The translations under genes and the position numbers were made by a program. The notes beneath the pieces were generated by a model. That model had not been told where the DNA came from. It did no database searches and was given only the letters and a program-made list of their open reading frames with translations. From positions 5,369-69,368 of the forward strand of contig CAZTVS010000002.1 of the NCBI GenBank assembly GCA_964617125.1: a stretch of 64,000 bases of DNA, in the 5' to 3' direction. Below are positions 10,048-39,439 of this stretch, piece by piece (the stretch's first letter is position 1; each line of letters starts with the position of its first letter). The DNA comes from an uncultured Acidobacteriota bacterium. Its GTDB lineage: Bacteria > Acidobacteriota > UBA6911 > CAINFC01.

Positions 10048-10201
10048 CCCCCTCATGAATTCTTGGGGAAACAGATCCCTTATCATTAAAAATAGGCCGC
10101 ATATGGTGGCCGGTTGCTCCCTCGGATCGACCGATAGGGGCGACACTCTTTTCCAAACACATTTTCATTTACCCTCCAAAATCAAAAGGGAAAGAAGCAC
10201 T

Positions 10202-13200
10202 ATGAACAAAAAAATTCTACTTCTTGCATTGGCAATGGTTCTTGCCTTTTATCCTGTTGCCTATGCGCAGTTTGAATCCGCCTCTGTGTTGGGAACGGTG
10301 CGAGACCCAACCGGAGCCGTGATCCCCGGAGCTACGATAACGATACGCAACGTAGAAACCGGGATTACGACCACAGCGGTAACCGACGATGCCGGCAACT
10401 ACATTATCCTGAATGTCCGCAACGGCACCTATACGGTACGTGCGGAAATGCCGGGCTTCTCGGCGGCCGTCGCCGAAAACGTGAAAGTAACGGTCAACGC
10501 CCGCCAGCGCGTCGACTTGGCCATGACGGTGGGCAACATCAGCGAGAGCGTTGTGGTCACCGGAGCCGCCAAACTGGTGGAGACCGATTCCAGCGACCGC
10601 GGAACGGTCATTGCAAGAGAACAGATCGTCAACCTGCCGCTGAACGGGCGCGCCTATGCCGATCTGGCCCTGCTCTCGCCGGGTGTCCGCAAATCGGCCA
10701 TTTCCACTTCCCGTGACGCCTCCTTTAACGTTCACGGGTTGCGCAGCTCCCTGAACAATTTCACCCTGGACGGCGTGGACAACAACTCTTACGGCACCTC
10801 CAATCAGGGATTTTCCAACCAGGTGGTCCAGGTTTCACCGGATGCGGTGGCCGAATTCAAGGTACAGACCAATAACTATTCCGCCGAATTCGGACGGGCC
10901 GGGGGAGCGGTGATCAACGCCTCGCTACGTGCCGGTACCAACCAGCTGCGCGGCTCGGTATGGGAGTTTCACCGCAACACAGTGCTCAATGCCGTGGGTT
11001 TCTTTAAACCCACCGCCGGTATCAAACCGGTGTTGATCCGCAACCAGTTCGGATTCGCCCTGGGCGGCCCCATCGTAAAGGACAAAGCCTTTTTCTTTAT
11101 CGACTATGAGGGCTTCCGGCAGATCCAGCGCAGCATCCGTTTCGCCAGTATCCCGACCATGGCTCAGCGTAGCGGCGTCCTGGGAAAGAACATACGTAAC
11201 CCTCTGACCGGAGAGACCTACACCGGAGGAGTACCGGAAAACCTGATCACTCCTTTCGCCCAAAAGGTACTTTCGCAACTGCCGGCACCCACCCGCTCCG
11301 GAATCGCCAATAATTACGATTCGCTTCCGGCACAAAAAGACTACAACGACAAGTTCAACATCAAGCTGGACTACCAATTTTCATCCAAGGTTAGTACTTT
11401 CGCCCGCATCAGCCACCGCAAGATGAACAATTACGAACCGGCCACCATCCCCGGACCTGCCGGAGGAGACGCCAACGGCTATGTCGGTACACTGAACCAA
11501 CAGCTGGCCACAGGCCTCACCTATACCATGTCACCGGAGAAACTGCTCGAATTTCGTCTGGGAGTTTCCAAAACCGAAGCCGGGAAAAACGGCATCAACC
11601 AGGGAGGAGCGGGCATGCAGGAACTGTACGGCATTTCCGGGACACCCACCGATTCCCGCTTTGCCGGAGGCCTGCTCAAGCAGTCGATCAGCGGTTGGAC
11701 TGCTTTTGGACGCCAGGAATCGAATCCGCAGTTTCAGAATCCCACTGTCTGGAATCCACGGGTCAATTTTTCCTGGATCAAGGGGCGCATGAGCTGGAAG
11801 GCAGGCTATGAATACCAGGCCATCGCCACCGACATCGACGACGTCAATCCGAAATATGGTCGCGACACCTATGGAGGCCAGTTTACCAGGCCATCGGGAG
11901 CCTCCTCTGATTCCGCCACCTACAATTTGGCCGACTTTCTTCTGGGCCTGCGCAGTAACTATGCCGTCGTCAATTCGTTCATTTTCCAGCTGCGGCAACG
12001 CATGCACTTCTTCTTCGTGCAAAACGACTGGAAGGTGAACAGCAAGCTGACCATGAACATGGGTTTGCGCTATGAACTCGGCACGCCACAATGGGAGAAG
12101 AGCAACTACCTGACCAACTTCGATCCGTCAACCCAGACGCTGCTTGCCGCCAAGGACGGCTCGATCTATGATCGGTCCCTGGTCAATCCCGATCGTAACA
12201 ACTTCGCTCCGCGTATCGGACTGGCCTATACTCCGACGTCACGTACGGTCATCCGGGCCGGTTATGGAGTGAGCTATGTGCACTTCAACCGTCTCGGCGG
12301 CGAAAATCTGCTCTCCTTCAACGGGCCCCATGTCGTTGAGGTGAACATCGACCAGCTGACATCCCAGCCGTTGTGTGTCGGCAATGCCGATCCGACCACC
12401 TGTTTCCGGACCACCCAGATGGGCTATCCGACGGGATACAACATTCCCTCCCGGTTCGATCCCCTGAAGGCCCGGGTCAACTACATACCCTCGAATACCC
12501 GGACCGGCTATGTACAGAGCTGGCATCTGACCACCCAATGGGAGCTGATCCCCAACCTGCTGCTGGACGTAGGTTATATCGGCAACAAGAGCACCAAACT
12601 GGTCATCCTGGGAGATTACAACCAGGCGAGACCGAACAATGTCGGCGAAAGCCTCTCCTTGCAGGCTAGAAGGCCACTGTCCAAATACCAATTCATCCAG
12701 GCGGCCTTCCCCGGAGGGTTCGCCAATTACCACGCTATGCAGATCAAGCTGGAACGCCGATTCACCGGTGGCTTCTACGCCCTGAATGCCTTCACATGGT
12801 CGAAAGGGATCGACAATGCCTCGGGACACCTGGAATTCCAGAACGGAGACAACAGCCGGGTGAACATGCTCGATATGAGCTACAACAGGGGGCTCTCGGG
12901 CTATGATCAACCTTTCAATAACACCACCAGTTTTGTCTACGATATTCCCTTCGGTCGAGGACGTACTTATGGATCGGGGATTCATTCAGTCCTGGATGCC
13001 GTAGCCGGAGGCTGGCGTCTGACTGGCATCAATACCATGACCAGTGGAGTGCCGATCAATCTGAACTACAGTCCGACATCCCTGCAGTCGGTCAGCGGTG
13101 CGCCCACGTACCGTCCGAATATTTCAGGAGAAATGTATTCCAGCGAAAAATCACCGACCAATTACTTCAACAAAACCAACATCACCGTACCCACGGATGT

Positions 13201-13456
13201 GAGCAAACCATTCGGCAACGCCGGACGCAATACCGGCCGAAGTCACGGTTTCTACCAGCTTGATATGGGATTGCATAAGGATTTCCGGCTGTTCCGGGAG
13301 GAAAACCGGCTCGAATTCCGGGCTGAATTTTTCAACCTGCTGAACAAGTCCAACTTCCAATCGGCCAACGGCAACCGCAGTTCCAGCTCCTTCGGGACGA
13401 TCAGTTCTACCTATCCGGCCCGGCAGATTCAGTTCGGCCTGAAACTTTACTTCTGA
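10202..13456 (+). CDS. TonB-dependent receptor with N-terminal carboxypeptidase-regulatory-like domain (Acidobacteria/Oar type)
   Basis: Signal peptide MNKKILLL...[23 protein letters not shown], plug [23 protein letters not shown], and terminal [14 protein letters not shown] at 10202 preferred. Confidence 0.93.
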
Positions 13457-18774: not shown

Positions 18775-20400
18775 TCATTTTCGTTCACCGGTGCCGGACG
18801 ATGGTGAAGGCAAGAATTTCTGGAGGACGGCGGAAGAGACCCACCAGATGTCATCACTGCGTGTAAAGAAGAGGAACTTCCCGTCAGGGGAGAGGATCGG
18901 GCAGTTTTCGTTGGCCGCGGTATTGATCTCCGGGCCCAGGTTCTTCGGCTCCGTCCAGGTGCCGTCGCTATTGCGAAAGCTCAGGTGGAGATCTCCCTGC
19001 CCGCTTCCACCGGGACGGTTGGAGGAGAAAACGAGGTATTCCTCGTCAGGGGCAATCAGAGCATCTCCTTCCATAGAGGTGCTGTTGATCGCATCGCCCA
19101 GGTTCTCCACTGTCCGGTATACCCCCTTGTCGAGTCTGGACCGATAGAGGTCCCGGTCGCCTCTCCCATCGGAACGAACCGACTGGAAATAGAGTGTCCC
19201 TTCCCGGGTTATGGAAGGATAAAACTCATCCGCTCCGGAATTGACCGGACTCCCCAGGTTGACCGGATCGGACCATTCCGTGCCTTTCCGCTGCGACACC
19301 CAGATATCGTAGTTATCCTGTGCATGGCCCTTCTCGTCCGGCGGACGATTGGAGCAAAAAAAGAGGCGGCTGCCGTCGGGAGACAGGAAGAGATCGACAT
19401 CGCTCCAGGTACCGGAAAAGGAGGCCGTCCTGGGTTGCGTCCACCGCTCCTTTTCCTCTTTCATGACCATGATTTTCCAGGGTCCGGCAGGAGTTTTGAC
19501 GGTGAAATAGAACTCCTTTCCGTCCGGGGTAAACACGGAGTTCAGTTCCTTCTTTTCCGTGGAAACGATGCCGTCGGCAAACACCAGCGGTATGGAAGCG
19601 GGTTTTTTCTGCGCCAGATATTCCCCCTTCCATTTCGGCATCTCCCATGGGTCGCCTTTGGCACCTGCCAGGAGCAGGAGCCGGGCAACCTGCGGATACT
19701 GCTCCCGCAGTGCAATTTGCAGAGCGGTATTCTTGTGACCATTCTTTTTATTGAGGGGAACACCGGCGGCAATCAACTGGCTGACGATTTCCTTATGTCC
19801 ATTCAGTGCAGCCAGGTGAAGGGCCGTTGAATCCTCAGGGTCCTTGTCTTTTGCGGAGGCCCCTTTCGCCAGCAGGAAACGGACAATTTCCGCCCCTCCC
19901 TGCGTCGCGGCCAGCAGCAGGGGTGTGTTGCCCTGTCCATCGATGCGTTCCAAACTGGCGCCCTTTGCCAACAGCATTTCCACGCACCGTGTGCATCCGC
20001 CTTTGACGGCCAGATGGAGCGGGGTATAGCGCAGAACGTTGTTTTGCGCATCCGCATCCGCCCCCTTCTGTAAGAGCTGCTCGACCCATAAATCCAAGCC
20101 CATGTAACAAGCCAGGTGGAGCGCGGCCATTCCTTCCTTGTCGAGCCGGTTTACGTCCGCACCCTGCGAAAGCAGGTAGCTGAATACCTCTCTATGCCTG
20201 GATAAAACCGCCTGGATGAGCGGGGTACGACCAAAGTCGTCGCCTACGTTGAGCCAATCCGGATGCTTTTCCAGCAGATCGCGAATGCTGTCCATATCCC
20301 CTCTCTGGACCGCATGATGTATCTCCCCGGACCATAACGGAGATATCTTCAGTAGTACCAGGAAAATCAACGCAAGCGATAGAATAGACGATCTCTTCAT
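18775..20400 (-). CDS. Secreted ankyrin-repeat protein fused to a PD40/TolB-like beta-propeller
   Basis: Signal peptide, about six ankyrin repeats (GRTPLIQA, GMAALHLA, YTPLHLA, GNTPLLLA, STALHLA, NTALQIA), then PD40 repeats (FTPDGKEFYF, LSPDGSRLFF, IAPDEEYLVFSS, LSPDGKFLFF). Confidence 0.88.
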   Translation of the reverse strand: MKRSSILSLALIFLVLLKISPLWSGEIHHAVQRGDMDSIRDLLEKHPDWLNVGDDFGRTPLIQAVLSRHREVFSYLLSQGADVNRLDKEGMAALHLACYMGLDLWVEQLLQKGADADAQNNVLRYTPLHLAVKGGCTRCVEMLLAKGASLERIDGQGNTPLLLAATQGGAEIVRFLLAKGASAKDKDPEDSTALHLAALNGHKEIVSQLIAAGVPLNKKNGHKNTALQIALREQYPQVARLLLLAGAKGDPWEMPKWKGEYLAQKKPASIPLVFADGIVSTEKKELNSVFTPDGKEFYFTVKTPAGPWKIMVMKEEKERWTQPRTASFSGTWSDVDLFLSPDGSRLFFCSNRPPDEKGHAQDNYDIWVSQRKGTEWSDPVNLGSPVNSGADEFYPSITREGTLYFQSVRSDGRGDRDLYRSRLDKGVYRTVENLGDAINSTSMEGDALIAPDEEYLVFSSNRPGGSGQGDLHLSFRNSDGTWTEPKNLGPEINTAANENCPILSPDGKFLFFTRSDDIWWVSSAVLQKFLPSPSSGTGERK

Positions 20401-20675: not shown

Positions 20676-23600
20676 CTATGGGGCCGAAAGTGCGGTGGAA
20701 GCGGTTTGACCGACCGCAGCCTGAGTGAGCAGCAAACGTTTGCCGCCTTCCGACATGTCATACAGATAGAGCAGAGTGGTTCCTTCGAAGACCCAATCGA
20801 ACGAGGCTTCAAATCTTTCCTCCGAGATGATCCCGGAAACCACTTTCTCCTCATTGTCCATCGGACCCTTGACCCACATCTGCAGGGGTTTTCGACCCGG
20901 ATTGCCCACCTGAAAATGTACCGAGCAGCGGCCGGTCTCCGGGAAAATGGTACAAACGGAGGGCGAGATGACGAAGGTCTCGTTGTCCGGCGGCAACAGG
21001 CCGGTCACCGTTGCCCGGGCCAATTCCCTGCGACTTTCGCCGACGACATCATACAAGATAAAAGTGTAAGTACCGACTCCAATCCATGGAATTTCCGCAG
21101 GGCTTTCCGGCACTTTTTCCGCATTCGTAATGCCGGTCAGGGACACCTCCTGTCCTCTCGGATCCTGAACCCAAATCTGTACCGGAAGCCGGGCCGGATT
21201 GAATGCCTGTACACGGACAGAACAGAGTCCGGCTATGGTTTTACACGTCGGGGGATCGACCGTGATAGCCGGAACCGGAGCCGGAATACCGGTAACGGTC
21301 ATTGTGGCCATGATTTCTCCGGAATCGACATCCACCATGGAAAACTTCGTCTTCCCCTCCCGTATCCACAGATAATCGGAATCGAGCTGTTTCTCCTCGG
21401 TAATACCGGTAATGGCGTTCTTCTCCTTGTCGGGGCCCTCGGCCCAGATCTGGACTCGCACCCCGTCGGGGTTCTGCATCTCCCAGCGAGTGGAGCAGAG
21501 CTGTGTATCCATGGCCACCTGACAGCTGATCGGACTCGCCTTGATCAACGGTCCGGCCAATCCGTGAGTCACCGTCGTGGCCAACAACTTCTTTTCCCCC
21601 ATCGTCATATCGTACAGGTAGAAGGTGGCAGGTTCGACCGTGATCCAATCGGCGGAGATCTGATAGCTGGAAAGACTCAGAGTTCCGGTGAATTGCTGTT
21701 CGGCACGGCCTCCGGTACTAACCCAGATCTGTGTCGGCAGCTGATTCGGATTTAAGACCTGCAAATCGGTGATGCAGGTCGACTTTTCCGCAGCGATCCG
21801 GCAGGGCGAAGGGGTGGCCTGGATGGAAGCTGTTTCGGAAACGCTCACCCAGATCGGATTGGTGTAACAGGCATGTTTGAATTTCCATGCGGCGGGATTC
21901 GAGGTGTCATAGAGGACCAGATACAGGCGATAGGCATAACTACCCGGTTTCAAGCTTTGCGACTCCTCCCATTCCAGAGTGCCTTCCAGATTTGCCCCGG
22001 AAAGAACCTTGTCTTCTTCCTTGCATTGACTCCCATCCGGATTGATACGGACCATATTCCATATACTGATTGTCTTGGAATCGGTGAACTCGGGAGTCGA
22101 TTTCCATTCCACCAGGAATTTCGGACGCTCTCCGGGCACAAGGATCGTATGGTCCCCGATAATAATATCTTTCCCGGGGTTGATGGTCTCCGGAGGATAC
22201 CGCCTGATCTGTTGATCGTTGTCCCGGTCCATGCCGAAAATCATGACCGGACCATCCGTCACGACCGAGCGCCCGTTGCGCAGTGCCTGCAGAAAACTGG
22301 GAGAATCTTTGCCCACAGGCGAATAAACGAGAGTTCGTACCTTACCCAAGGCATTATCGCTCCATGCCAGCTGTACGACACCCTGCTCGGAATAATTCAG
22401 ATCGCCATAGGCATCCGAGCCGGCGGAGATGAAGATTTTCCTGACCGGTTTCAGGTTTTTCCCGATCAGTTCCGACCATCTGTTTAAAGCCTGCTGGTGT
22501 TCGACCGGCCAATTGACATCGAAGAGCTCTCCGAAGTTGCCGTCCTTATCGAAGGGGTTGACATTTTGATTATCTTTGACGGATGTTGATGGAGTTTTGC
22601 GGGCATGTCTGCCGCTCCAAACCTGAAGACCGGAGAACTGACGGTGAGAAAGAGCGACTTGGTAGTTTTTCGTGCTCCAGGGAACGATGCTGCCGACGAT
22701 GGAGGAAAGTTCTTCCCTGGCAGGATACGCTGCATAAGCAAAGGCAAAGGGCTGAGAGGTCATCTCCTGCAGCCGATTCGAAAGACTGAAAAGAGGACGC
22801 AGACCTTCGTTCACTGTTCCCGGAATGAATTTTGTATGGTTGTAACTCAAGAGAGCGATCTTCTGGATCTGGTCGGATTGGGCGGATTTGCTCTGAGTGG
22901 AAATTTCCTCTCCGACGATAAAAGGCAAACCGTTGAGGCTGTTGTTCAATCCCTGAGACCTTCCCTGCAATTCCATCCAGGCGGAACCGGCGATCGATAC
23001 CTCCGGGTCGGACAGGTCCCAGGAGCCGAACCGGTATCCGGTGGCCAGAGCCCCGGTATAATTGCTCGCCAGATCGGTTATCATGATCCAGTCCAGTCCC
23101 ATCTTATCCAGGGCATTTTTCATCGAGACCAGGGTTCCGCCAAACCGGTAAGGATTGTTGGTGTACTCCGAATGAACTTGAGCGTCTCCATAATACCAGC
23201 CGCCCCCATTGGGACGAGGCAGGGGAGCATCGCCGACATGGACTCGCAGCTGTTTGCGGTAAGGATAGGTGTCACGAAAAGTACCGGTCGAGGATTCGAT
23301 CAGGCCCGACAACATCACCGTCGTGCGCAGGAACATATTCTGACCGGCGGAAAAAGAAAACTCCTTCGCCGTCATCCACAAAGTCTCTTCCCAAGTGTCG
23401 ATGGTGGTGTTGGCAATGCTTCGATTCAGGGGGAGACGGATCTCCTTTTGCTTGCACCCCAAGGCGACACTTCCCTCTACGTAGGGTTGTCGATAGACGC
23501 AAACCTCGACATAATCGAGTTGCTCATTCCTTACCCCCTCTTCGGTCAGATCCCGAACGAAAAAGCTGACCGGAATCCGGGTTTCCGTGTCTTCCACGCG

Positions 23601-23771
23601 CCATGGTGCATCGCTGTTGACGTCTGTCCCAGTTCGCTGTATAAACTCCGGGATCATACCGGCTTGCTTGTGCCCGACAACCTTGTCTCCCGCCGAGGCT
23701 TGCAAACAGAGGAAAAGAAGAACGGCGGCGAACGCCGTGAAGGCATAGATATCTATTTTTTTAATGGACAT
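20676..23771 (-). CDS. Large secreted protein: degenerate PHP/CehA-McbA-like metallohydrolase fold plus four C-terminal ~88-aa repeats
   Basis: Signal peptide after RBS GGAG (ATG 23771). PHP-like landmarks WYYGDAQVHS, LDWIMITD, GEEIS, GSDAY, GKVRTLVY, ALRNGRSVVTDGP. Four P-x-x-C...C...NP...QIW...W...YD repeats at 20709-21824. Confidence 0.7.
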   Translation of the reverse strand: MSIKKIDIYAFTAFAAVLLFLCLQASAGDKVVGHKQAGMIPEFIQRTGTDVNSDAPWRVEDTETRIPVSFFVRDLTEEGVRNEQLDYVEVCVYRQPYVEGSVALGCKQKEIRLPLNRSIANTTIDTWEETLWMTAKEFSFSAGQNMFLRTTVMLSGLIESSTGTFRDTYPYRKQLRVHVGDAPLPRPNGGGWYYGDAQVHSEYTNNPYRFGGTLVSMKNALDKMGLDWIMITDLASNYTGALATGYRFGSWDLSDPEVSIAGSAWMELQGRSQGLNNSLNGLPFIVGEEISTQSKSAQSDQIQKIALLSYNHTKFIPGTVNEGLRPLFSLSNRLQEMTSQPFAFAYAAYPAREELSSIVGSIVPWSTKNYQVALSHRQFSGLQVWSGRHARKTPSTSVKDNQNVNPFDKDGNFGELFDVNWPVEHQQALNRWSELIGKNLKPVRKIFISAGSDAYGDLNYSEQGVVQLAWSDNALGKVRTLVYSPVGKDSPSFLQALRNGRSVVTDGPVMIFGMDRDNDQQIRRYPPETINPGKDIIIGDHTILVPGERPKFLVEWKSTPEFTDSKTISIWNMVRINPDGSQCKEEDKVLSGANLEGTLEWEESQSLKPGSYAYRLYLVLYDTSNPAAWKFKHACYTNPIWVSVSETASIQATPSPCRIAAEKSTCITDLQVLNPNQLPTQIWVSTGGRAEQQFTGTLSLSSYQISADWITVEPATFYLYDMTMGEKKLLATTVTHGLAGPLIKASPISCQVAMDTQLCSTRWEMQNPDGVRVQIWAEGPDKEKNAITGITEEKQLDSDYLWIREGKTKFSMVDVDSGEIMATMTVTGIPAPVPAITVDPPTCKTIAGLCSVRVQAFNPARLPVQIWVQDPRGQEVSLTGITNAEKVPESPAEIPWIGVGTYTFILYDVVGESRRELARATVTGLLPPDNETFVISPSVCTIFPETGRCSVHFQVGNPGRKPLQMWVKGPMDNEEKVVSGIISEERFEASFDWVFEGTTLLYLYDMSEGGKRLLLTQAAVGQTASTALSAP

Positions 23772-24054
23772 GTTGTCTCCTGACCGCATGGCTGTGACCG
23801 CCAAAGGGTTTGAAAACCGTTGATCTGCAGTAAAACCATATCACTTCACGGAAGGGAAGCCGAACCTTGAATCCGCGAGATTCCATTGCATACGATAACA
23901 GTAATACATTTCTTCATTTATATCACTCTATCTATGCCAATGTAAAGAAGAATATCGATACTTACAATACCAATGAATGAAATGGAAATATCAACCCTTT
24001 CTCAATGGAATCATGATTTTCCATTGGACACTTCTCTAAGCGCCGGACCGTGGT

Positions 24055-25683
24055 CTAACGGAAGGTGTCGGAGAGAGCCAAACGGTCGAAAACAATATAC
24101 TGAACCTCCAAAAGGGCGGAAGGTTTGCCGCCATGTATCTGCAATTGCCAGCGGGAAATATCCTTTTCTTTCTGATATTTTTTCAGATCGGCGAGGGGAA
24201 TCAGCAGGATGTTCCAATCTTTTCCGGGGGAAAGTGTATATTGGTCGCTGATTTGCTGTTTGGAGAAATCGGACTGATCGGAGTAATGCCAGCCGACAGT
24301 CAGGGACAACTGCCGGTCCGTGCGATATCGAAGTACCAGATTTTTATAAAATCGAACAGGAGCGGTAAAAAGGGGGCTGTTCAAGATGACTGTATCTTCC
24401 ACTTCCAGACGGGTCCGATAGTTGCGGCCCTCCAGGGCTTTGGCTTCAAACACGGGCGCCATCTTCTTGTTCAGAAACTGCCAGCGGGACATTTCAGGCT
24501 GGGAAGACCATTCCAGAAATTCCATCTTTTTCAGGAACATGTCCTGGGCGGTGGTTCCCGCGTTCGCTATCTTTCCGCCAGAAAGCAAAACCTGCCCGAT
24601 ACCGAGCGCTGTCTCCAGGGTGGACTGACCTACCGACCTGCTGTCGGATCCACCTTGCAGGCAGTCTTTGGAATCCGGAAGACTCTGGGTTTCGGTAAAA
24701 AACGGATTATAGCTGTAACTGGTGCTGTATTGCGGGATCTCTACATGAACACCCAAGGCATATACCGGATTGATAAACCATTCCCCCGGGCGAACATCGC
24801 CGTCATCCCGCTGGTCCCATCCCCAGGGCGGCTTGGCGGCACAACCTCCGATCGGTCCGTTAAAGGCAGAGCCCAGGCGAACGACCTGACGTCCGGAAAT
24901 CTCATAAGACGAACTGCAGCAATAGGTTTTTTCAGAACCGATCTGCAGACGACGTGACCATAAATGTTCTTCGATCGGTAGAAGATCGTAGGACACATCC
25001 GTATCTCCGATCTCCATAGGTTCTTCCGCCTTGCGTCCGGTAAAACGATAGATAAACCCCGGGAATTTTTCCGCGGTTCCGGAGTACTTTCCCTTCAGAT
25101 TGAAGACGCCATGCCCTTCCGATTCGATGAACACCACAGGATGCCAGCCGTTGTTGCTCCCGCCATCCTCCCATTCCATTGGGCCGTCTATTTTTCCCTG
25201 TTTCGCCACAACACCCGACCCGGGACCGGAAACATATTTGTAAAACCGGTCATGCGCCAGGGTTTCCATATAAACCGGCCGGGGATTCTCTCCGGCATCT
25301 TTGGGAACGACCAGGACCATACCCTCCATGTCGTTCTCGTGTTCGATTTTAGGGGCATAGGCTTCCAGAATCCGAGTCGTGAAATCACGAATATGGAAAA
25401 AAGCGTAGTAGATGAAAAAGTGGCGATCCGCTTCGACCACGGCATAATAGACATACCCCGGGGACGGATAGAGATAAGCATTAGCCCAATTGTCGGCGCC
25501 GTTCCAGTTTCCATCGAAATCGAACCGGGTCACCTGGTCCAATTTGACGGAATGGGCCTCCTGATAGAGTACGGGTGCATACTGCTCGGCAATTTTCCGA
25601 TCATCGCGGTCTCCGCCAAACACAATGCTTAGAGGTAGAGCCAACAGAAAGATACATCGTCGAAAAAAAGGGTGTCGGATCAT
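24055..25683 (-). CDS. Secreted hypothetical protein with NPP1/Vps62-like N-terminal domain and C-terminal beta-sandwich (CBM-like)
   Basis: RBS AAGGAGGT before ATG 25683 and a signal peptide. YAPVLYQ...VYYAVVE...IYYAFFHIRD...EHENDMEGMVLVV...PVVFIESEGHG resembles the NLP/Vps62 core. Confidence 0.55.
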   Translation of the reverse strand: MIRHPFFRRCIFLLALPLSIVFGGDRDDRKIAEQYAPVLYQEAHSVKLDQVTRFDFDGNWNGADNWANAYLYPSPGYVYYAVVEADRHFFIYYAFFHIRDFTTRILEAYAPKIEHENDMEGMVLVVPKDAGENPRPVYMETLAHDRFYKYVSGPGSGVVAKQGKIDGPMEWEDGGSNNGWHPVVFIESEGHGVFNLKGKYSGTAEKFPGFIYRFTGRKAEEPMEIGDTDVSYDLLPIEEHLWSRRLQIGSEKTYCCSSSYEISGRQVVRLGSAFNGPIGGCAAKPPWGWDQRDDGDVRPGEWFINPVYALGVHVEIPQYSTSYSYNPFFTETQSLPDSKDCLQGGSDSRSVGQSTLETALGIGQVLLSGGKIANAGTTAQDMFLKKMEFLEWSSQPEMSRWQFLNKKMAPVFEAKALEGRNYRTRLEVEDTVILNSPLFTAPVRFYKNLVLRYRTDRQLSLTVGWHYSDQSDFSKQQISDQYTLSPGKDWNILLIPLADLKKYQKEKDISRWQLQIHGGKPSALLEVQYIVFDRLALSDTFR

Positions 25684-25823
25684 CCTGCAGACCTCCTTTT
25701 CAGACCTCCCGGCAGCACATAAAAAAACTATTAGGGAAGCAAACAACCGTCATGGAAAGGACCAGGGTTGTATCTCTTCCCCGGTCCCTTCCACAGTCAT
25801 GCCATAAGGATTAGATGTCGCAA

Positions 25824-35389: not shown

Positions 35390-36439
35390 TCAGGGATAGG
35401 CAACCTGAGTCACGGAGAAGTCGAAGGTGCCGGAGGTCCCTTCATTGCCGCTCCCTACGGGATTTTCCACCTTCACCGCAGCCGTAGCAGGACTGGCAAC
35501 AAGGCTGGCCGGCAGGGAAACGGTGAGCACTTGAGGTATGGTGTCCAGACTTCTTGCCGTAACTGTCAGCTCGGTCGCATTCCAGTACACCTTGGAACCG
35601 GCGTGGAACCTCAGACCGGAAACGAAGAAGGAAGAGGCAGCCGAACCGGCTTTGATCGTCTGCGGATTCAGGGCAAAGAGGACCGGACCGAAAGCAGCGG
35701 GAGCCCTCAGATTGGACACGTTCAGGGTGCTGAAGACCGCCATGGCCGGCCGGTCATAGCGTAAGGCAGTGATGGCGAGGCTGCCTGATGTAAGGCGCAG
35801 CTCCAGACGCCCGGAAGGGGCATTGCTGATCAATTCAAAGGCAAACTTGGCCAGGTGCCCTTTGGGTGCAATGGCTGGAATGGGAACGCTTCCCAGAAGA
35901 ACTCCACCCGTACTATATAAGGAGACAGTCCCATTTGCGGCCGTCGTTTCCGGATTGGCTATGGCAAAACCGGTAAAGGACCCGTCTTCGTCCAGATAGA
36001 TGTCAGCCGCAGTCAGGGCTTCGCAGGCCGGAACACTCGCCTCTACCTGAAGGACACCACCCTGGAAATATTGAAAAATGGCGTTGCCGTTGATGTTGAC
36101 GGCAGGATTGGTCGACACTTGCGCCCAGCCTTGTATCGTCGCAGCGGGAGTTCCCGAGGTTTGTATCTTCAGGGAACCGCGGGCCGGCAGATTATAGGTA
36201 AAGGTATTGGCGGTTGTGCTCCCGATCGTGAGACTTAGAGGCTGACCGGAATCGCCATAAAATACAATCTGTACCGTGGTGGCCACACTCCCCGGATTGG
36301 TCAGCAAGAAAGTGGTTTTGTATCCTCCTCCATCTGCGATATGGGCGAAGTTCATCTTACCGGCAGCAAAGCCATTCATCGATATCAGAGCCAGGAAAAA
36401 CACCGGCAATAAAACCGGTTTCAGGATTTTCTTAAACAT
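35390..36439 (-). CDS. Secreted beta-sandwich protein with C-terminal IPT/TIG-like domain
   Basis: Signal peptide MFKKILKP...GFA; FAHIADGGGYKTTFLLTNP module, recalled from Acidobacteria secreted proteins; C-terminal LNPQTIKAGS...VSG.RF...VYWN...V.NP. Confidence 0.6.
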   Translation of the reverse strand: MFKKILKPVLLPVFFLALISMNGFAAGKMNFAHIADGGGYKTTFLLTNPGSVATTVQIVFYGDSGQPLSLTIGSTTANTFTYNLPARGSLKIQTSGTPAATIQGWAQVSTNPAVNINGNAIFQYFQGGVLQVEASVPACEALTAADIYLDEDGSFTGFAIANPETTAANGTVSLYSTGGVLLGSVPIPAIAPKGHLAKFAFELISNAPSGRLELRLTSGSLAITALRYDRPAMAVFSTLNVSNLRAPAAFGPVLFALNPQTIKAGSAASSFFVSGLRFHAGSKVYWNATELTVTARSLDTIPQVLTVSLPASLVASPATAAVKVENPVGSGNEGTSGTFDFSVTQVAYP

Positions 36440-36523
36440 AGACTGTAACTCCCGCAAAAGATTGAAGGACACTCAGGATTCCCAAATCGGAAAGATCTAA
36501 TGATACATTAAAATCCGAATAAG

Positions 36524-36624: not shown

Positions 36625-39012
36625 CTACCGCATGGTTCGCTTTACCGCAGCCTGGGTGGGCAGACTGCAACTGGCACAACCCAGATTGATGATCTGGCCG
36701 AACAGGTTATAGGCCCGCGTGTCCGAACAGATCATGGGTAAGGTTGTCCCGGAGGGAAGTCCGGTGGTGACCCGGAAGGTCAGATAAACCAGGATCCCGT
36801 CTCCGATGACACTCTGGTTCTGGCCCGAAACCAGGAAGCGCAGGCGTCCCGGATATTGCAGACCGACCCCTACCTCCTTGAAAGAACTGACGGCAGCCGG
36901 ACCCGTCGTTGCCCCGATGTAGGTCATCAACGCAGGATCATAGCTTAAATCGCCCTGGAGGGAAACTGGACCGGTCCCATAGACCACGGTAGTCAGACTG
37001 ACCGGAACCACGACGTCAGCACCAGGCGCAGCCCGAGGACAGCTGATGTTCAGCATCAGGTCGGATGCCGGTAAGGTGGTCGTCGTACTCGTCGGTACAT
37101 AGGCAGTGGTGGTCGTCAACCAGGAACTCGTGGTCGTCATCCAGGTAGAGGTTGTCGGCGTAGAGGTGGAAGGAGAGTAGGATACTCCCGTCACGACGGC
37201 AGAAGACAACAGGATGCGGCTGGTACCGCTGACATCATACAGATTGAAGGTGTAGTTGCCGACGGAAATCCAGGGGGCCGAGATCCCGAAATAGGTGGTT
37301 GTGAAAACACCGGTCACCGGGCTTTCCTGGAAATCCGGACTGCGCGACCATACCTGGACCAAACGGTTCCCCGGATTGTAAACCTGCAGCGAAACGCTGC
37401 AGACGGTTTGTCCTGCCGGTATTTCGCACCAGGAAGGTGTTGCCACGATATAGGGTGCACCGGGATTAGGATTCGTCGTGGTCGGGTAATACGATGTGGT
37501 AGTTGGGACCGTGGTGGTCACAACGGTAGTGATCGTAGTGCTGCCGGGAATTTCGTAGAGAAGCGAGCGCAAGGCGGCATCTACCTGAATCTGAGAGATG
37601 GTCAAGGAGCATTTGTCATCGGTCACCGGATATCCTGTCGTATCCAGAGTGGAGGCGATCTGATCGATGGTCGCCGTCGGACGCGCCGCCCTCAGGATGG
37701 CCCAGGCGCCGGCAACTTGCGGAGAGGCCATGGAAGTTCCCAGAAAATAACTGAAACCAACCCCGGGAACCGAGGAGAGAATCACTTCTCCCGGAGCCAT
37801 CAGAGAAGGGGTTGCTTTGCCGGAAGTCGACGTGGCACAGTTGGAATAATCGGAAACGGCATCCCGGGTGCTTCCCATGCTGCCGTCACCGGTGGAACCG
37901 ACGCTGATCACGTTGGACAGACAGGCAGGATCACTCAGGCCATCCTCGGATCCGTTGTTTCCGGCGGCGACGATCGTAGCCACACCGATTTCGCGTAACT
38001 TCTCCACAGCATCCTTGGTCGCCTGCGTATCGATATCCTGATTGTCGCAATAGGGTTGATACACGGCCGAGGAGCCGCCACTGAAGTTGACCGCAGCAAT
38101 TCTGAGGCCACTAGTCTGCTGCAAGGTATAGACCCGTTCGAGACCGGCTACCACATCGGAAGAATAGAAAAGGGCACAGGGAGCCTGACGGTCCCGGCAT
38201 ATGGCATCGCTGTTGAATTTGGATGCGGCCTGAATGGCGATGATGCTGGCATCCTTGGCAACGCCGGAGAAGGATCTCCCTTTTCCGGCGGCGATACCGG
38301 CCACATGGGTCCCATGTTCGCAATCCTGTATCGTTGTGCTGCAGTGCAGTCCGGCATCGGTACCGACGAAGGCCCCCACTCCACCGGGACAAAGACTGGT
38401 AGAGCTGTATGGAGCATACGTCGTCGAAAAACAGGCTTCCGAGACCACTTTTCCGCGCAGGAAAGGATGGTTTTTATCCACACCGGTATCGATGATGGCA
38501 ATTGTCTGTCCGGCTCCCGTCCCTCCCATGCTCCAGGCCTTGGAAACGCCGATTTGCGCAGCACTCTCGGAAAGACTGGGATAAAAAATCTTGTCCCTTC
38601 CGATCGCCGCCACCTGCTTGGAAGAAGCCAAAGCAGTCAATCCCGTGGCATCCACTTCCAGAGACATATAGGGGATGAACTGGAATTTCTTGACTTCTTT
38701 ATAGTTCTTTAAAGAATTCAGCACCGAGTCTTGAGCAACTGCAAGGGCGGTCTTGGGTGCATTGATGGCCTCAAGGGTTGCCTCGGTGCTGCGGGCAACG
38801 CTAGCCTTGAGAGCGACCATAACACGAACCGTCCCTTCCGCTTGGACTCTGGCCATCAGTTCCGGATACTCACTACGGCCCGGCATGAATGTCAGGTCTT
38901 CCTGATTCCCGGAAGCGGCCCAAAGGGGTAACGAGGAAACGAAAAGATAGACCAGGCAGAGCAACGCCGTCCATTTCGTTTTCCCCGCATTCTGGGAAAA
39001 ACTACCTTTCAT
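36625..39012 (-). CDS. Secreted S8 (subtilisin-like) serine peptidase with Thr-rich linkers, one copy of the ~88-aa repeat module and a C-terminal cohesin-like domain
   Basis: Intact triad IAIIDTG / HGTHVAG / GTSMASP; signal peptide and propeptide after ATG 39012; C-terminal PG..VVVPVSL...LQGDLSYDP...LRFLV...I.DG.LVYLTF. Confidence 0.9.
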   Translation of the reverse strand: MKGSFSQNAGKTKWTALLCLVYLFVSSLPLWAASGNQEDLTFMPGRSEYPELMARVQAEGTVRVMVALKASVARSTEATLEAINAPKTALAVAQDSVLNSLKNYKEVKKFQFIPYMSLEVDATGLTALASSKQVAAIGRDKIFYPSLSESAAQIGVSKAWSMGGTGAGQTIAIIDTGVDKNHPFLRGKVVSEACFSTTYAPYSSTSLCPGGVGAFVGTDAGLHCSTTIQDCEHGTHVAGIAAGKGRSFSGVAKDASIIAIQAASKFNSDAICRDRQAPCALFYSSDVVAGLERVYTLQQTSGLRIAAVNFSGGSSAVYQPYCDNQDIDTQATKDAVEKLREIGVATIVAAGNNGSEDGLSDPACLSNVISVGSTGDGSMGSTRDAVSDYSNCATSTSGKATPSLMAPGEVILSSVPGVGFSYFLGTSMASPQVAGAWAILRAARPTATIDQIASTLDTTGYPVTDDKCSLTISQIQVDAALRSLLYEIPGSTTITTVVTTTVPTTTSYYPTTTNPNPGAPYIVATPSWCEIPAGQTVCSVSLQVYNPGNRLVQVWSRSPDFQESPVTGVFTTTYFGISAPWISVGNYTFNLYDVSGTSRILLSSAVVTGVSYSPSTSTPTTSTWMTTTSSWLTTTTAYVPTSTTTTLPASDLMLNISCPRAAPGADVVVPVSLTTVVYGTGPVSLQGDLSYDPALMTYIGATTGPAAVSSFKEVGVGLQYPGRLRFLVSGQNQSVIGDGILVYLTFRVTTGLPSGTTLPMICSDTRAYNLFGQIINLGCASCSLPTQAAVKRTMR

Positions 39013-39439
39013 AACTTCCTTCCTTTCCATTCCATGAACACAAAATATTCGACATCCGGGGAGGATGTCCATATCGCTGGCCCAAACTTTCAGAAGCTTC
39101 CTTCCCTTGCTTCCTACGTCGACATCGTATTGGCCTCCAGCTAGAGCGCGGGGATTTCTCCCCTGATCCATGCATTTATATATTACACTACTAGATTGAC
39201 AATAACATACCATAAATAAATAATTTTTTACATATCCTTTTTTTATAGGTAACCCGTCACATTTTTTCAACCTTTTTTCTGCATTCAGGAGATCTTCACG
39301 ATCGTAGCCGGAAAAAAAATGGCGGTACCACCTCTGAAAGCCTCTCCCAGAGGGGAATACCGCCAGAAACCGGTGGTCCCGGATTCGGATACTATTTTAT
39401 TTCATGACGACCGGCACCCAGCGGGGGTCCGGTAAAAAC

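Follow-up and report, generated by a model that had tools for sequence, protein, structure and literature searches.

In this work, we analyzed a 64,000-nucleotide stretch of contig CAZTVS010000002.1 (hereafter the window) from an uncultured Acidobacteriota bacterium, in which two genes on the minus strand, pA and pB, encode secreted proteins that carry copies of one small module of about 88 residues with two cysteines. Four copies (R1 to R4) stand in tandem at the C-terminal end of pA and a fifth lies within pB, a subtilase of the S8 peptidase family. The intervals given for these units in a preliminary description of the window translate in frame, four of them in pA and the fifth as residues 607-695 of an 881-aa open reading frame (ORF). 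Residues of pA are numbered throughout on its 1042-aa ORF and those of pB on its 881-aa ORF. The two genes and the five copies, with their scores against a hidden Markov model (HMM) of the module, are as follows:

20676..23771, minus strand: pA gene, encoding a 1031-aa secreted protein (ORF; the same product is recorded on public contigs)
21561..21824, minus strand: module copy R1, pA residues 661-748 (HMM 125.5 bits; leave-one-out E 4.7e-20; AlphaFold2 model, pLDDT 97.7)
21288..21545, minus strand: module copy R2, pA residues 754-839 (HMM 122 bits; leave-one-out E 5.4e-16)
21000..21266, minus strand: module copy R3, pA residues 847-935, with a short C-x6-C loop
20709..20975, minus strand: module copy R4, pA residues 944-1032; the stop codon lies 10 residues beyond its end
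36625..39012, minus strand: pB gene, encoding a 795-aa secreted subtilase (ORF and Pfam; an exact match to this 795-aa product is recorded)
37186..37449, minus strand: module copy 5, pB residues 608-695 (HMM 126.5 bits; leave-one-out E 1.8e-23)

The five units align across 88 columns, with P5, C8, C17, N25, P26, Q32, W34, G47, W60, D72 and G88 invariant and a pairwise identity of 27-44%; R2 is the most divergent copy, and R3 is, among the pA copies, the nearest to the one in the S8 peptidase (44% identity). Each copy, when left out of the model, was recovered with E-values from 5e-16 to 2e-23, and profiles built from the proteins of other organisms alone recovered all five, with E-values, scaled to 1.84 billion sequences, of 1e-17 to 2e-24 when the relatives used were close and of 5e-12 to 1e-3 when they were distant. 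A six-frame HMM scan of the 64-kb window gave no further copies. Together, these statistics rule out a chance or low-complexity artefact, and the five units are copies of one homologous module. The preliminary description had proposed a single module of about 88 aa, present four times in tandem and once in the S8 peptidase and thus used on two otherwise unrelated secreted proteins, and had named the profile alignment of the five copies as a check; the leave-one-out and outside-profile results bear out this proposal. There is no repeat at the DNA level and the GC content is even across the window; the duplications must thus be old, and the region did not arrive by a recent insertion.

No model of Pfam-A (2025) or NCBIfam 20.0 covers the module, with the repeat regions of pA and pB, the five copies and 76 non-redundant instances as queries. 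It is thus an unnamed family in these two libraries, in agreement with the earlier assignment to no named family, and the high-scoring existing family that could have contradicted that assignment did not appear in either of them. PDB sequence searches with both profiles gave nothing significant, the PDB profile search being topped by fibronectin and Tencon at a sub-threshold E of 0.035-1, and a search of Rfam returned nothing in the window. Membership in the fn3 family (PF00041) was considered and rejected: pA, pB and the five copies gave no match, the 76 instances and the consensus sequences gave none at E<=1, and hhalign of the A2 profile against six canonical FN3 (fibronectin type III) domains returned a probability of 2.3% with an E-value of 0.021 (fibronectin had E 0.035 in the PDB profile search). 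One of the three profile consensus sequences produced a sub-threshold match to PKD and the other two produced nothing; this match, of the family (A2) consensus to PF00801, scored 18.5 bits (E 0.002) against a cut-off of 23.5 and spanned 28 residues, a third of the domain. For the copies in the window there were no matches to PKD, CARDB, BACON or FlgD_ig.

DUF3019 (PF11456) was likewise rejected as the family of the window copies, as the five copies, pA and the three consensus sequences gave no match at E<=1-10, with at least 25 bits required for a single domain. The best single-instance matches came from 6 of the 76 instances, at E-values of at least 0.06. Three distant multi-copy proteins (P0004, P0007 and P0010) reached summed scores of 30-48 bits over profile positions 2-88 of 102; no single stretch of P0004 or P0010 passes the threshold, and one stretch of P0007 does, within a summed 40.7 bits. 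Since highly repetitive carriers also yield spurious summed matches to AAA_lid_1, WKF and PH_11, DUF3019 would at most be a remote relative of the wider module family, and we found nothing relevant to it in the literature. RNaseT2L_C was also dropped as a candidate for the window copies.

Structure prediction with AlphaFold2 gave an all-beta model, with a mean predicted local distance difference test (pLDDT) of 89.4 when five sequences were used and of 97.7, with a predicted template modeling score (pTM) of 0.87, when 76 were used. Strands are predicted at positions 2-4, 17-24, 31-37, 53-61, 66-72 and 79-86, with short bridges at 42-43 and 48. Foldseek searches of the PDB with this model retrieved FN3 and cytokine-receptor D2 domains (template modeling (TM) scores 0.5-0.67, probability 0.99-1.0, E-values of at least 0.006), headed by fibronectin FN3-11, the integrin beta4 FN3, the POMGNT2 FN3 domain and IFNAR2 D2, and the BFVD search also gave FN3-like matches. 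The module is therefore predicted with high confidence to be a seven-stranded FN3/Ig-like beta-sandwich, in line with the Ig-like beta fold that had been suggested from the letters of the window and with the structural check proposed for it. As the Foldseek matches are accompanied by an hhalign probability too low for a family relationship, we speak of an FN3/Ig-like fold, membership in the fn3 family not being demonstrable. From the periodicity of the strands, the conserved Q32, W34 and Y71 appear to face outward, W34 and Y71 on the neighboring strands C and F, whereas W60, Y66, F68, L70, V33 and V35 look like positions of the fold core. The loop regions BC, DE and FG would hold N25-P26, G47 and D72.

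The paired cysteines noted earlier hold across the family: of 119 instances, 117 have both Cys8 and Cys17, two from a single protein have neither, and none has just one of them. The cysteine count is even in 118 of the 119 instances, and the two residues are separated by nine positions (C-x8-C) in 104. In the model, strand A is followed by a long loop that contains C8, and strand B starts at C17. This all-or-none pattern, together with the secreted context, supports a disulfide bond that would close the A-B loop. A second pair, C-x4-C or C-x6-C, occurs just before P-W-I in ten instances (in P0016, P0026, P0027, P0040, P0083, P0089 and P0093), and presumably forms a second disulfide in a sub-lineage.

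The search with the module profile that the preliminary description had called for, carried out over 1.84 billion representative proteins, revealed a rare family, with 97 carriers at E<=1e-3 (taken as the carrier threshold), of which 31 reach E<=1e-10 and 10 reach E<=1e-30. The carriers hold 119 full-length instances, 1-12 per protein, and one genomic ORF contains 14. The family consensus reads I-S-A-S-P-N-P-C-x-I-x2-G-x3-C-x2-T-L-x-W ... V-Q-V-W-V ... A-P-W-I ... Y-x-F-x-L-Y-D-x-S-x-G-x-R-x-L-L-x-S-V-T-V-T-G, the most conserved positions being C8 and C17 (98%), P5 (96%), F68 (95%), L70 (93%) and W60 (87%). The copies of the window fall in a sub-group with C-S-V-x-L-Q-V-x-N-P ... Q-I-W-V, which also takes in P0001, P0003, P0005, P0006, P0008, P0011, P0013, P0015, P0018 and P0020. 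Other searches were less productive: the four-repeat region as a single query found no relative in 185,579 species genomes, the degenerate DNA pattern P-W-[IV]-x2-G-x-[YF]-x-F-x-L-Y-D-V had no match in metagenome contigs of the Joint Genome Institute (JGI), and a word-index homologue search gave nothing with the five-copy alignment and seven short proteins with the 76-instance alignment. In species-representative genomes, a restrictive motif located 15 loci, of which 12 are in Acidobacteriota-type metagenome-assembled genomes (MAGs), mostly of Bryobacterales, and three in members of the candidate phyla radiation (CPR), namely Saccharibacteria, Liptonbacteria and Nomurabacteria. pA and pB have 4-6 close relatives each.

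Most full-length carriers have signal-peptide-like N-termini. The domains fused to the module, some catalytic and others structural, are unrelated and number at least a dozen. The catalytic partners comprise Peptidase_C10, S8, M10, FGE-sulfatase-like domains (up to five per protein), GH5 cellulase, alpha/beta-hydrolases and the membrane glycosyltransferase PMT_2; NHL propellers, cohesin, TIG, fn3/Pur_ac_phosph_N, DUF11, I-set and RHS repeats were also found. In Bryobacterales, the module also occurs alone, as a secreted protein of about 125-135 aa. Within MAGs of this order, the gene for a stand-alone module protein of about 125 aa lies directly downstream of three genes kept together (202, 358 and 346 aa), none of which has a Pfam match (locus L008, 2205..5300, plus strand; also L003-L007). 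Giant RHS-repeat toxin-like proteins of Bryobacterales (DUF6531 plus RHS) carry from 1 to 14 modules upstream of the RHS region: the N-terminal part of L009 (3..5798, plus strand) and of P0002 is a regular array with a period of about 97 aa and 12-14 copies, and L014 (1071..9512) has one module, at residues 1311-1398. P0006, a 3293-aa protein with five FGE-sulfatase-like domains, opens with two modules (residues 29-228) that match R2-R3 of pA in order (pA residues 747-949, in the region 21000..21560 of the window), with 43% identity over 203 aa and including the unusually short C-x6-C loop of R3, which suggests that multi-copy cassettes are the form in which the module moves.

With respect to its hosts, pA is composed of a signal peptide, a degenerate PHP/CehA-like region of about 600 aa and the four tandem modules, which make up the C-terminal third of the protein and are joined by short Pro-rich linkers of 5-8 residues (LAGPL, IPAPVPA and LLPPDNET). 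The long ORF spans 20676..23804 on the minus strand (1042 aa), and the recorded product of 1031 aa begins at the ATG at 23771. The parts of pA outside the modules are:

23691..23771, minus strand: putative Sec signal peptide, MSIKKIDIYAFTAFAAVLLFLCLQASA (KK in the n-region, then a hydrophobic core and A-S-A, as read from the sequence)
21840..23657, minus strand: enzyme-like N-terminal region (unnamed family; weak CehA/McbA (PHP-type) match)

The N-terminal region scored 43.1 bits (E 3e-11) against NCBIfam NF038032, below the cut-off of 80, had no match in Pfam-A and gave nothing significant in a PDB sequence search. It has 13 homologues (25-36% identity), in which PA14, PKD, CARDB, BACON, FlgD_ig, N_BRCA1_IG, PPC, VWA or M23 domains are found in the place of the module; the module thus occupies a slot filled by generic accessory beta-sandwich domains. 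Thirteen of the 14 aligned family members retain G-D-x-H-x-H, E, T-D-H, H, H, N and D-A-H-G-D. pA replaces seven of the eight invariant His/Glu/Asn positions (Q209, R220, L245, A317, Y360, S397 and Y466) and keeps H211 alone, and the lost positions look like putative catalytic metal ligands of the PHP/CehA type. An orthologue 94% identical to pA, in the same gene order, shows the same residue losses, and the ratio of non-synonymous to synonymous substitution rates (dN/dS) between the two is 0.17 for the whole protein, 0.18 for the N-terminal region and 0.15 for the repeat region. The loss of seven positions, its presence in the orthologue and the purifying selection make this domain look like a conserved pseudo-enzyme, likely catalytically dead. 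A 349-aa ORF (20706..21755, plus strand) runs antisense to the repeats and further long antisense ORFs cross the pA gene; no evidence of coding was found for them, and codon and GC composition most likely accounts for their presence. Directly upstream of pA and on the same strand, 24055..25746 encodes a protein of 542/563 aa with no Pfam match, and three further public contigs (L001, L017 and L018) keep the order Tex, 542/563-aa gene, pA.

In pB, the signal peptide is followed by the S8 domain, a Thr-rich linker, the module, a Thr/Ser-rich linker and a cohesin domain. The ORF covers 36625..39270 on the minus strand (881 aa), the recorded product starting at 39012. The domains and linkers around the module are:

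37636..38517, minus strand: Peptidase_S8 catalytic domain (PF00082, E 2.5e-32), with the triad motifs IIDTGVD, HGTHVAG and GTSMASP intact
37453..37545, minus strand: Thr-rich linker GSTTITTVVTTTVPTTTSYYPTTTNPNPGAP (read from the sequence)
37039..37185, minus strand: Thr/Ser-rich linker of 49 residues, of which 17 are Thr and 10 are Ser
36742..37038, minus strand: cohesin domain, pB residues 745-843 (PF00963, E 2.3e-10; score 41.2 bits, cut-off 24.1)

P0013 is the orthologue of pB, with 54% identity and an identical architecture. The gene 153 bp downstream of pB on the same strand (35390..36472, minus), which may be co-transcribed with it, encodes a protein of 360 aa whose N-terminus resembles a signal peptide and for which Pfam gave no match. 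Elsewhere in the window, 18775..20400 (minus strand) encodes a secreted 541-aa protein with about six ankyrin repeats and PD40 (WD40-like, TolB-type) propeller repeats, which are rarely combined in exported proteins of bacteria, and 10055..13456 (plus strand) a TonB-dependent-receptor-like outer-membrane protein in which CarboxypepD_reg stands at the N-terminus, together with OMP_b-brl_4 (754 bits). This architecture is typical of Acidobacteriota and is the sole feature within the window that hints at its lineage; the distribution of the wider module family suggests the same origin.

Taken together, these results lead us to regard the five units as copies of a mobile and uncurated extracellular FN3-like domain that quite probably serves as a spacer or adhesion module. 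In this model, a presumably disulfide-closed sandwich of about 88 residues, attached to varied secreted proteins, would project their functional domains or tether them to a polymeric substrate or the cell envelope. R1-R4 form a beads-on-a-string C-terminal stalk on pA, with its probably dead PHP/CehA-like domain, and copy 5, held between Thr/Ser-rich linkers, sets the catalytic domain of the subtilase apart from the cohesin in pB. We infer the spacer or adhesion role as most likely from the slot common to PKD, CARDB and BACON domains, the tandem arrays with short Pro-rich linkers, the long arrays on RHS toxins, the position of copy 5 between the linkers of the subtilase and the purifying selection on the repeat region. 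Several points weigh against this interpretation: the stand-alone single-module secreted proteins of Bryobacterales argue for a function of the module beyond spacing, the invariant N25-P26, G47 and D72, in loops that form one pole of the FN3 fold, would fit a specific binding site more than a passive spacer, and a named relative could still exist outside Pfam and NCBIfam. The preliminary description had gone further and proposed a lineage-specific system for targeting, assembly or docking. This did not hold: the module has many unrelated partners; among 99 proteins (the 97 carriers and the two window proteins), only three, namely pB, P0013 and P0011, combine it with cohesin; and homologues of pA hold PKD, CARDB, BACON, PA14 or FlgD_ig in the same slot. 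Such a pattern is what promiscuous accessory beta-sandwich domains usually show.

It is nonetheless possible, if rather unlikely, that the module is a ligand-binding "address tag" for one lineage-specific polymer of the envelope or matrix, such as an exopolysaccharide, which would co-localize secreted enzymes, pseudo-enzymes and RHS toxins as a functional analogue of carbohydrate-binding modules (CBMs), S-layer homology (SLH) domains or cell-wall-binding repeats. The recurrence of one module on many unrelated secreted proteins would fit this possibility, as would its existence as a stand-alone protein, its attachment to a probably inactive enzyme homologue that is nonetheless under purifying selection and the conserved residues that appear to face outward or to lie in the BC, DE and FG loops, as placed by periodicity. 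Faint matches to CBM_4_9 (two of the 76 instances, E 0.017) and CBM_56 (one of 76, E 0.096) point in the same direction, but they are not significant, and no CBM or known binding repeat is significantly similar to the module. Moreover, most of the strongly conserved residues (the cysteine pair and the core positions listed above) look like part of the fold core, the 12-14-copy arrays on RHS toxins are more stalk-like than lectin-array-like, and the spread over Acidobacteriota and CPR speaks against a single lineage-specific ligand. That the module represents a new class of targeting tag in Acidobacteriota and some CPR, binding one polymer or surface receptor, seems to us more doubtful still. 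If true, such a tag would co-localize proteases, RHS toxins, a pseudo-enzyme and small stand-alone "competitor" proteins, and would do the work of SLH, CBM or dockerin systems within a phylum whose mechanisms of surface display are, to our knowledge, essentially unknown.

Two further roles appear far less probable. The presence of module and cohesin together in pB, P0013 and P0011 could be read as a sign that the module is a non-canonical dockerin assembling pA and other carriers onto the S8 peptidase, the more so as no canonical dockerin motif was seen in the window (by a simple regular expression, no D-x-[ND]-x-[DN]-G in its six frames); nothing relevant was found in the literature on Acidobacteria, cohesin and dockerin. 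Docking to cohesin is nevertheless very improbable, since the module is all-beta, gives no Pfam dockerin match and is without the duplicated Ca-binding D-x-N-x-D-G helix-loop-helix, and since so few carriers have a cohesin; in those proteins the two stand in cis, and most carriers come from genomes or contexts where no cohesin was seen. A role as C-terminal secretion or sorting signal, comparable to the C-terminal domains (CTDs) of the type IX secretion system (T9SS), would be suggested by the modules that end within about 10 residues of the C-terminus (in pA, P0003, P0005, P0008, P0020, P0030, P0031 and P0034), and T9SS CTDs are also Ig-like sandwiches of about 80-100 aa. We consider this the least plausible of the roles discussed, because the module is internal in pB, N-terminal in many proteins (P0002, P0004, P0006, P0007, P0010 and P0012), and present in up to 14 tandem copies, none of which would be expected of a sorting signal. 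NCBIfam models of T9SS CTDs (such as TIGR04183) and of other sorting signals gave no match, and T9SS is a system of Bacteroidota and the wider Fibrobacterota-Chlorobiota-Bacteroidota (FCB) group, whereas the genome matches of the module are in Acidobacteriota and CPR.

The spacer or adhesion module that we favor makes a clean candidate for a curated domain of unknown function, with about 100 representative carriers, high-confidence models and a diagnostic signature (P-x-x-C-x8-C ... W-I ... Y-x-F-x-L-Y-D). Its curation would annotate part of many large secreted proteins now listed as "hypothetical", RHS toxins and secreted proteases among them, in Bryobacterales, in further uncultured Acidobacteriota of soil and peat, and in CPR. 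By itself, the module raises no new biological question, as bacterial secretomes hold many Ig-like accessory families; a defined ligand would increase its interest, because little is understood of how Acidobacteriota display proteins at their surface and tether enzymes, and the pseudo-enzyme host pA is a small additional point of interest.

Within the known extracellular domains, FN3 (PF00041) of bacterial hydrolases offers the closest comparison. Both have about 90 residues and a seven-stranded sandwich (predicted, in the case of the module), both occur as tandem accessory or spacer domains adjoining catalytic domains, FN3 domains are the closest structures in PDB and BFVD (at the TM scores given above), and the sub-threshold profile match pairs the Y-x-F-x-L-Y of the module with the tyrosine-corner strand F of FN3. 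The module differs from canonical FN3 in the A-B loop presumably closed by a disulfide (P-x-x-C-x8-C). PKD, CARDB, BACON and FlgD_ig are likewise small beta-sandwiches on secreted enzymes and take the same C-terminal slot in homologues of pA; in other secreted bacterial enzymes, PKD, FN3, CARDB and BACON project or tether functional domains. DUF3019 resembles the module as a small, uncharacterized, secreted unit. With cohesin-dockerin systems there is a resemblance in pB, which has a genuine cohesin and Thr/Ser-rich linkers similar to cellulosomal ones. A dockerin, in contrast, is an alpha-helical unit of about 70 aa with a duplicated Ca-binding F-hand, unlike the all-beta module, which lacks Ca-binding repeats. 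Altogether, the module represents a new family that is itself rare, although domains of its kind are very common, rather than evidence for a new targeting system.

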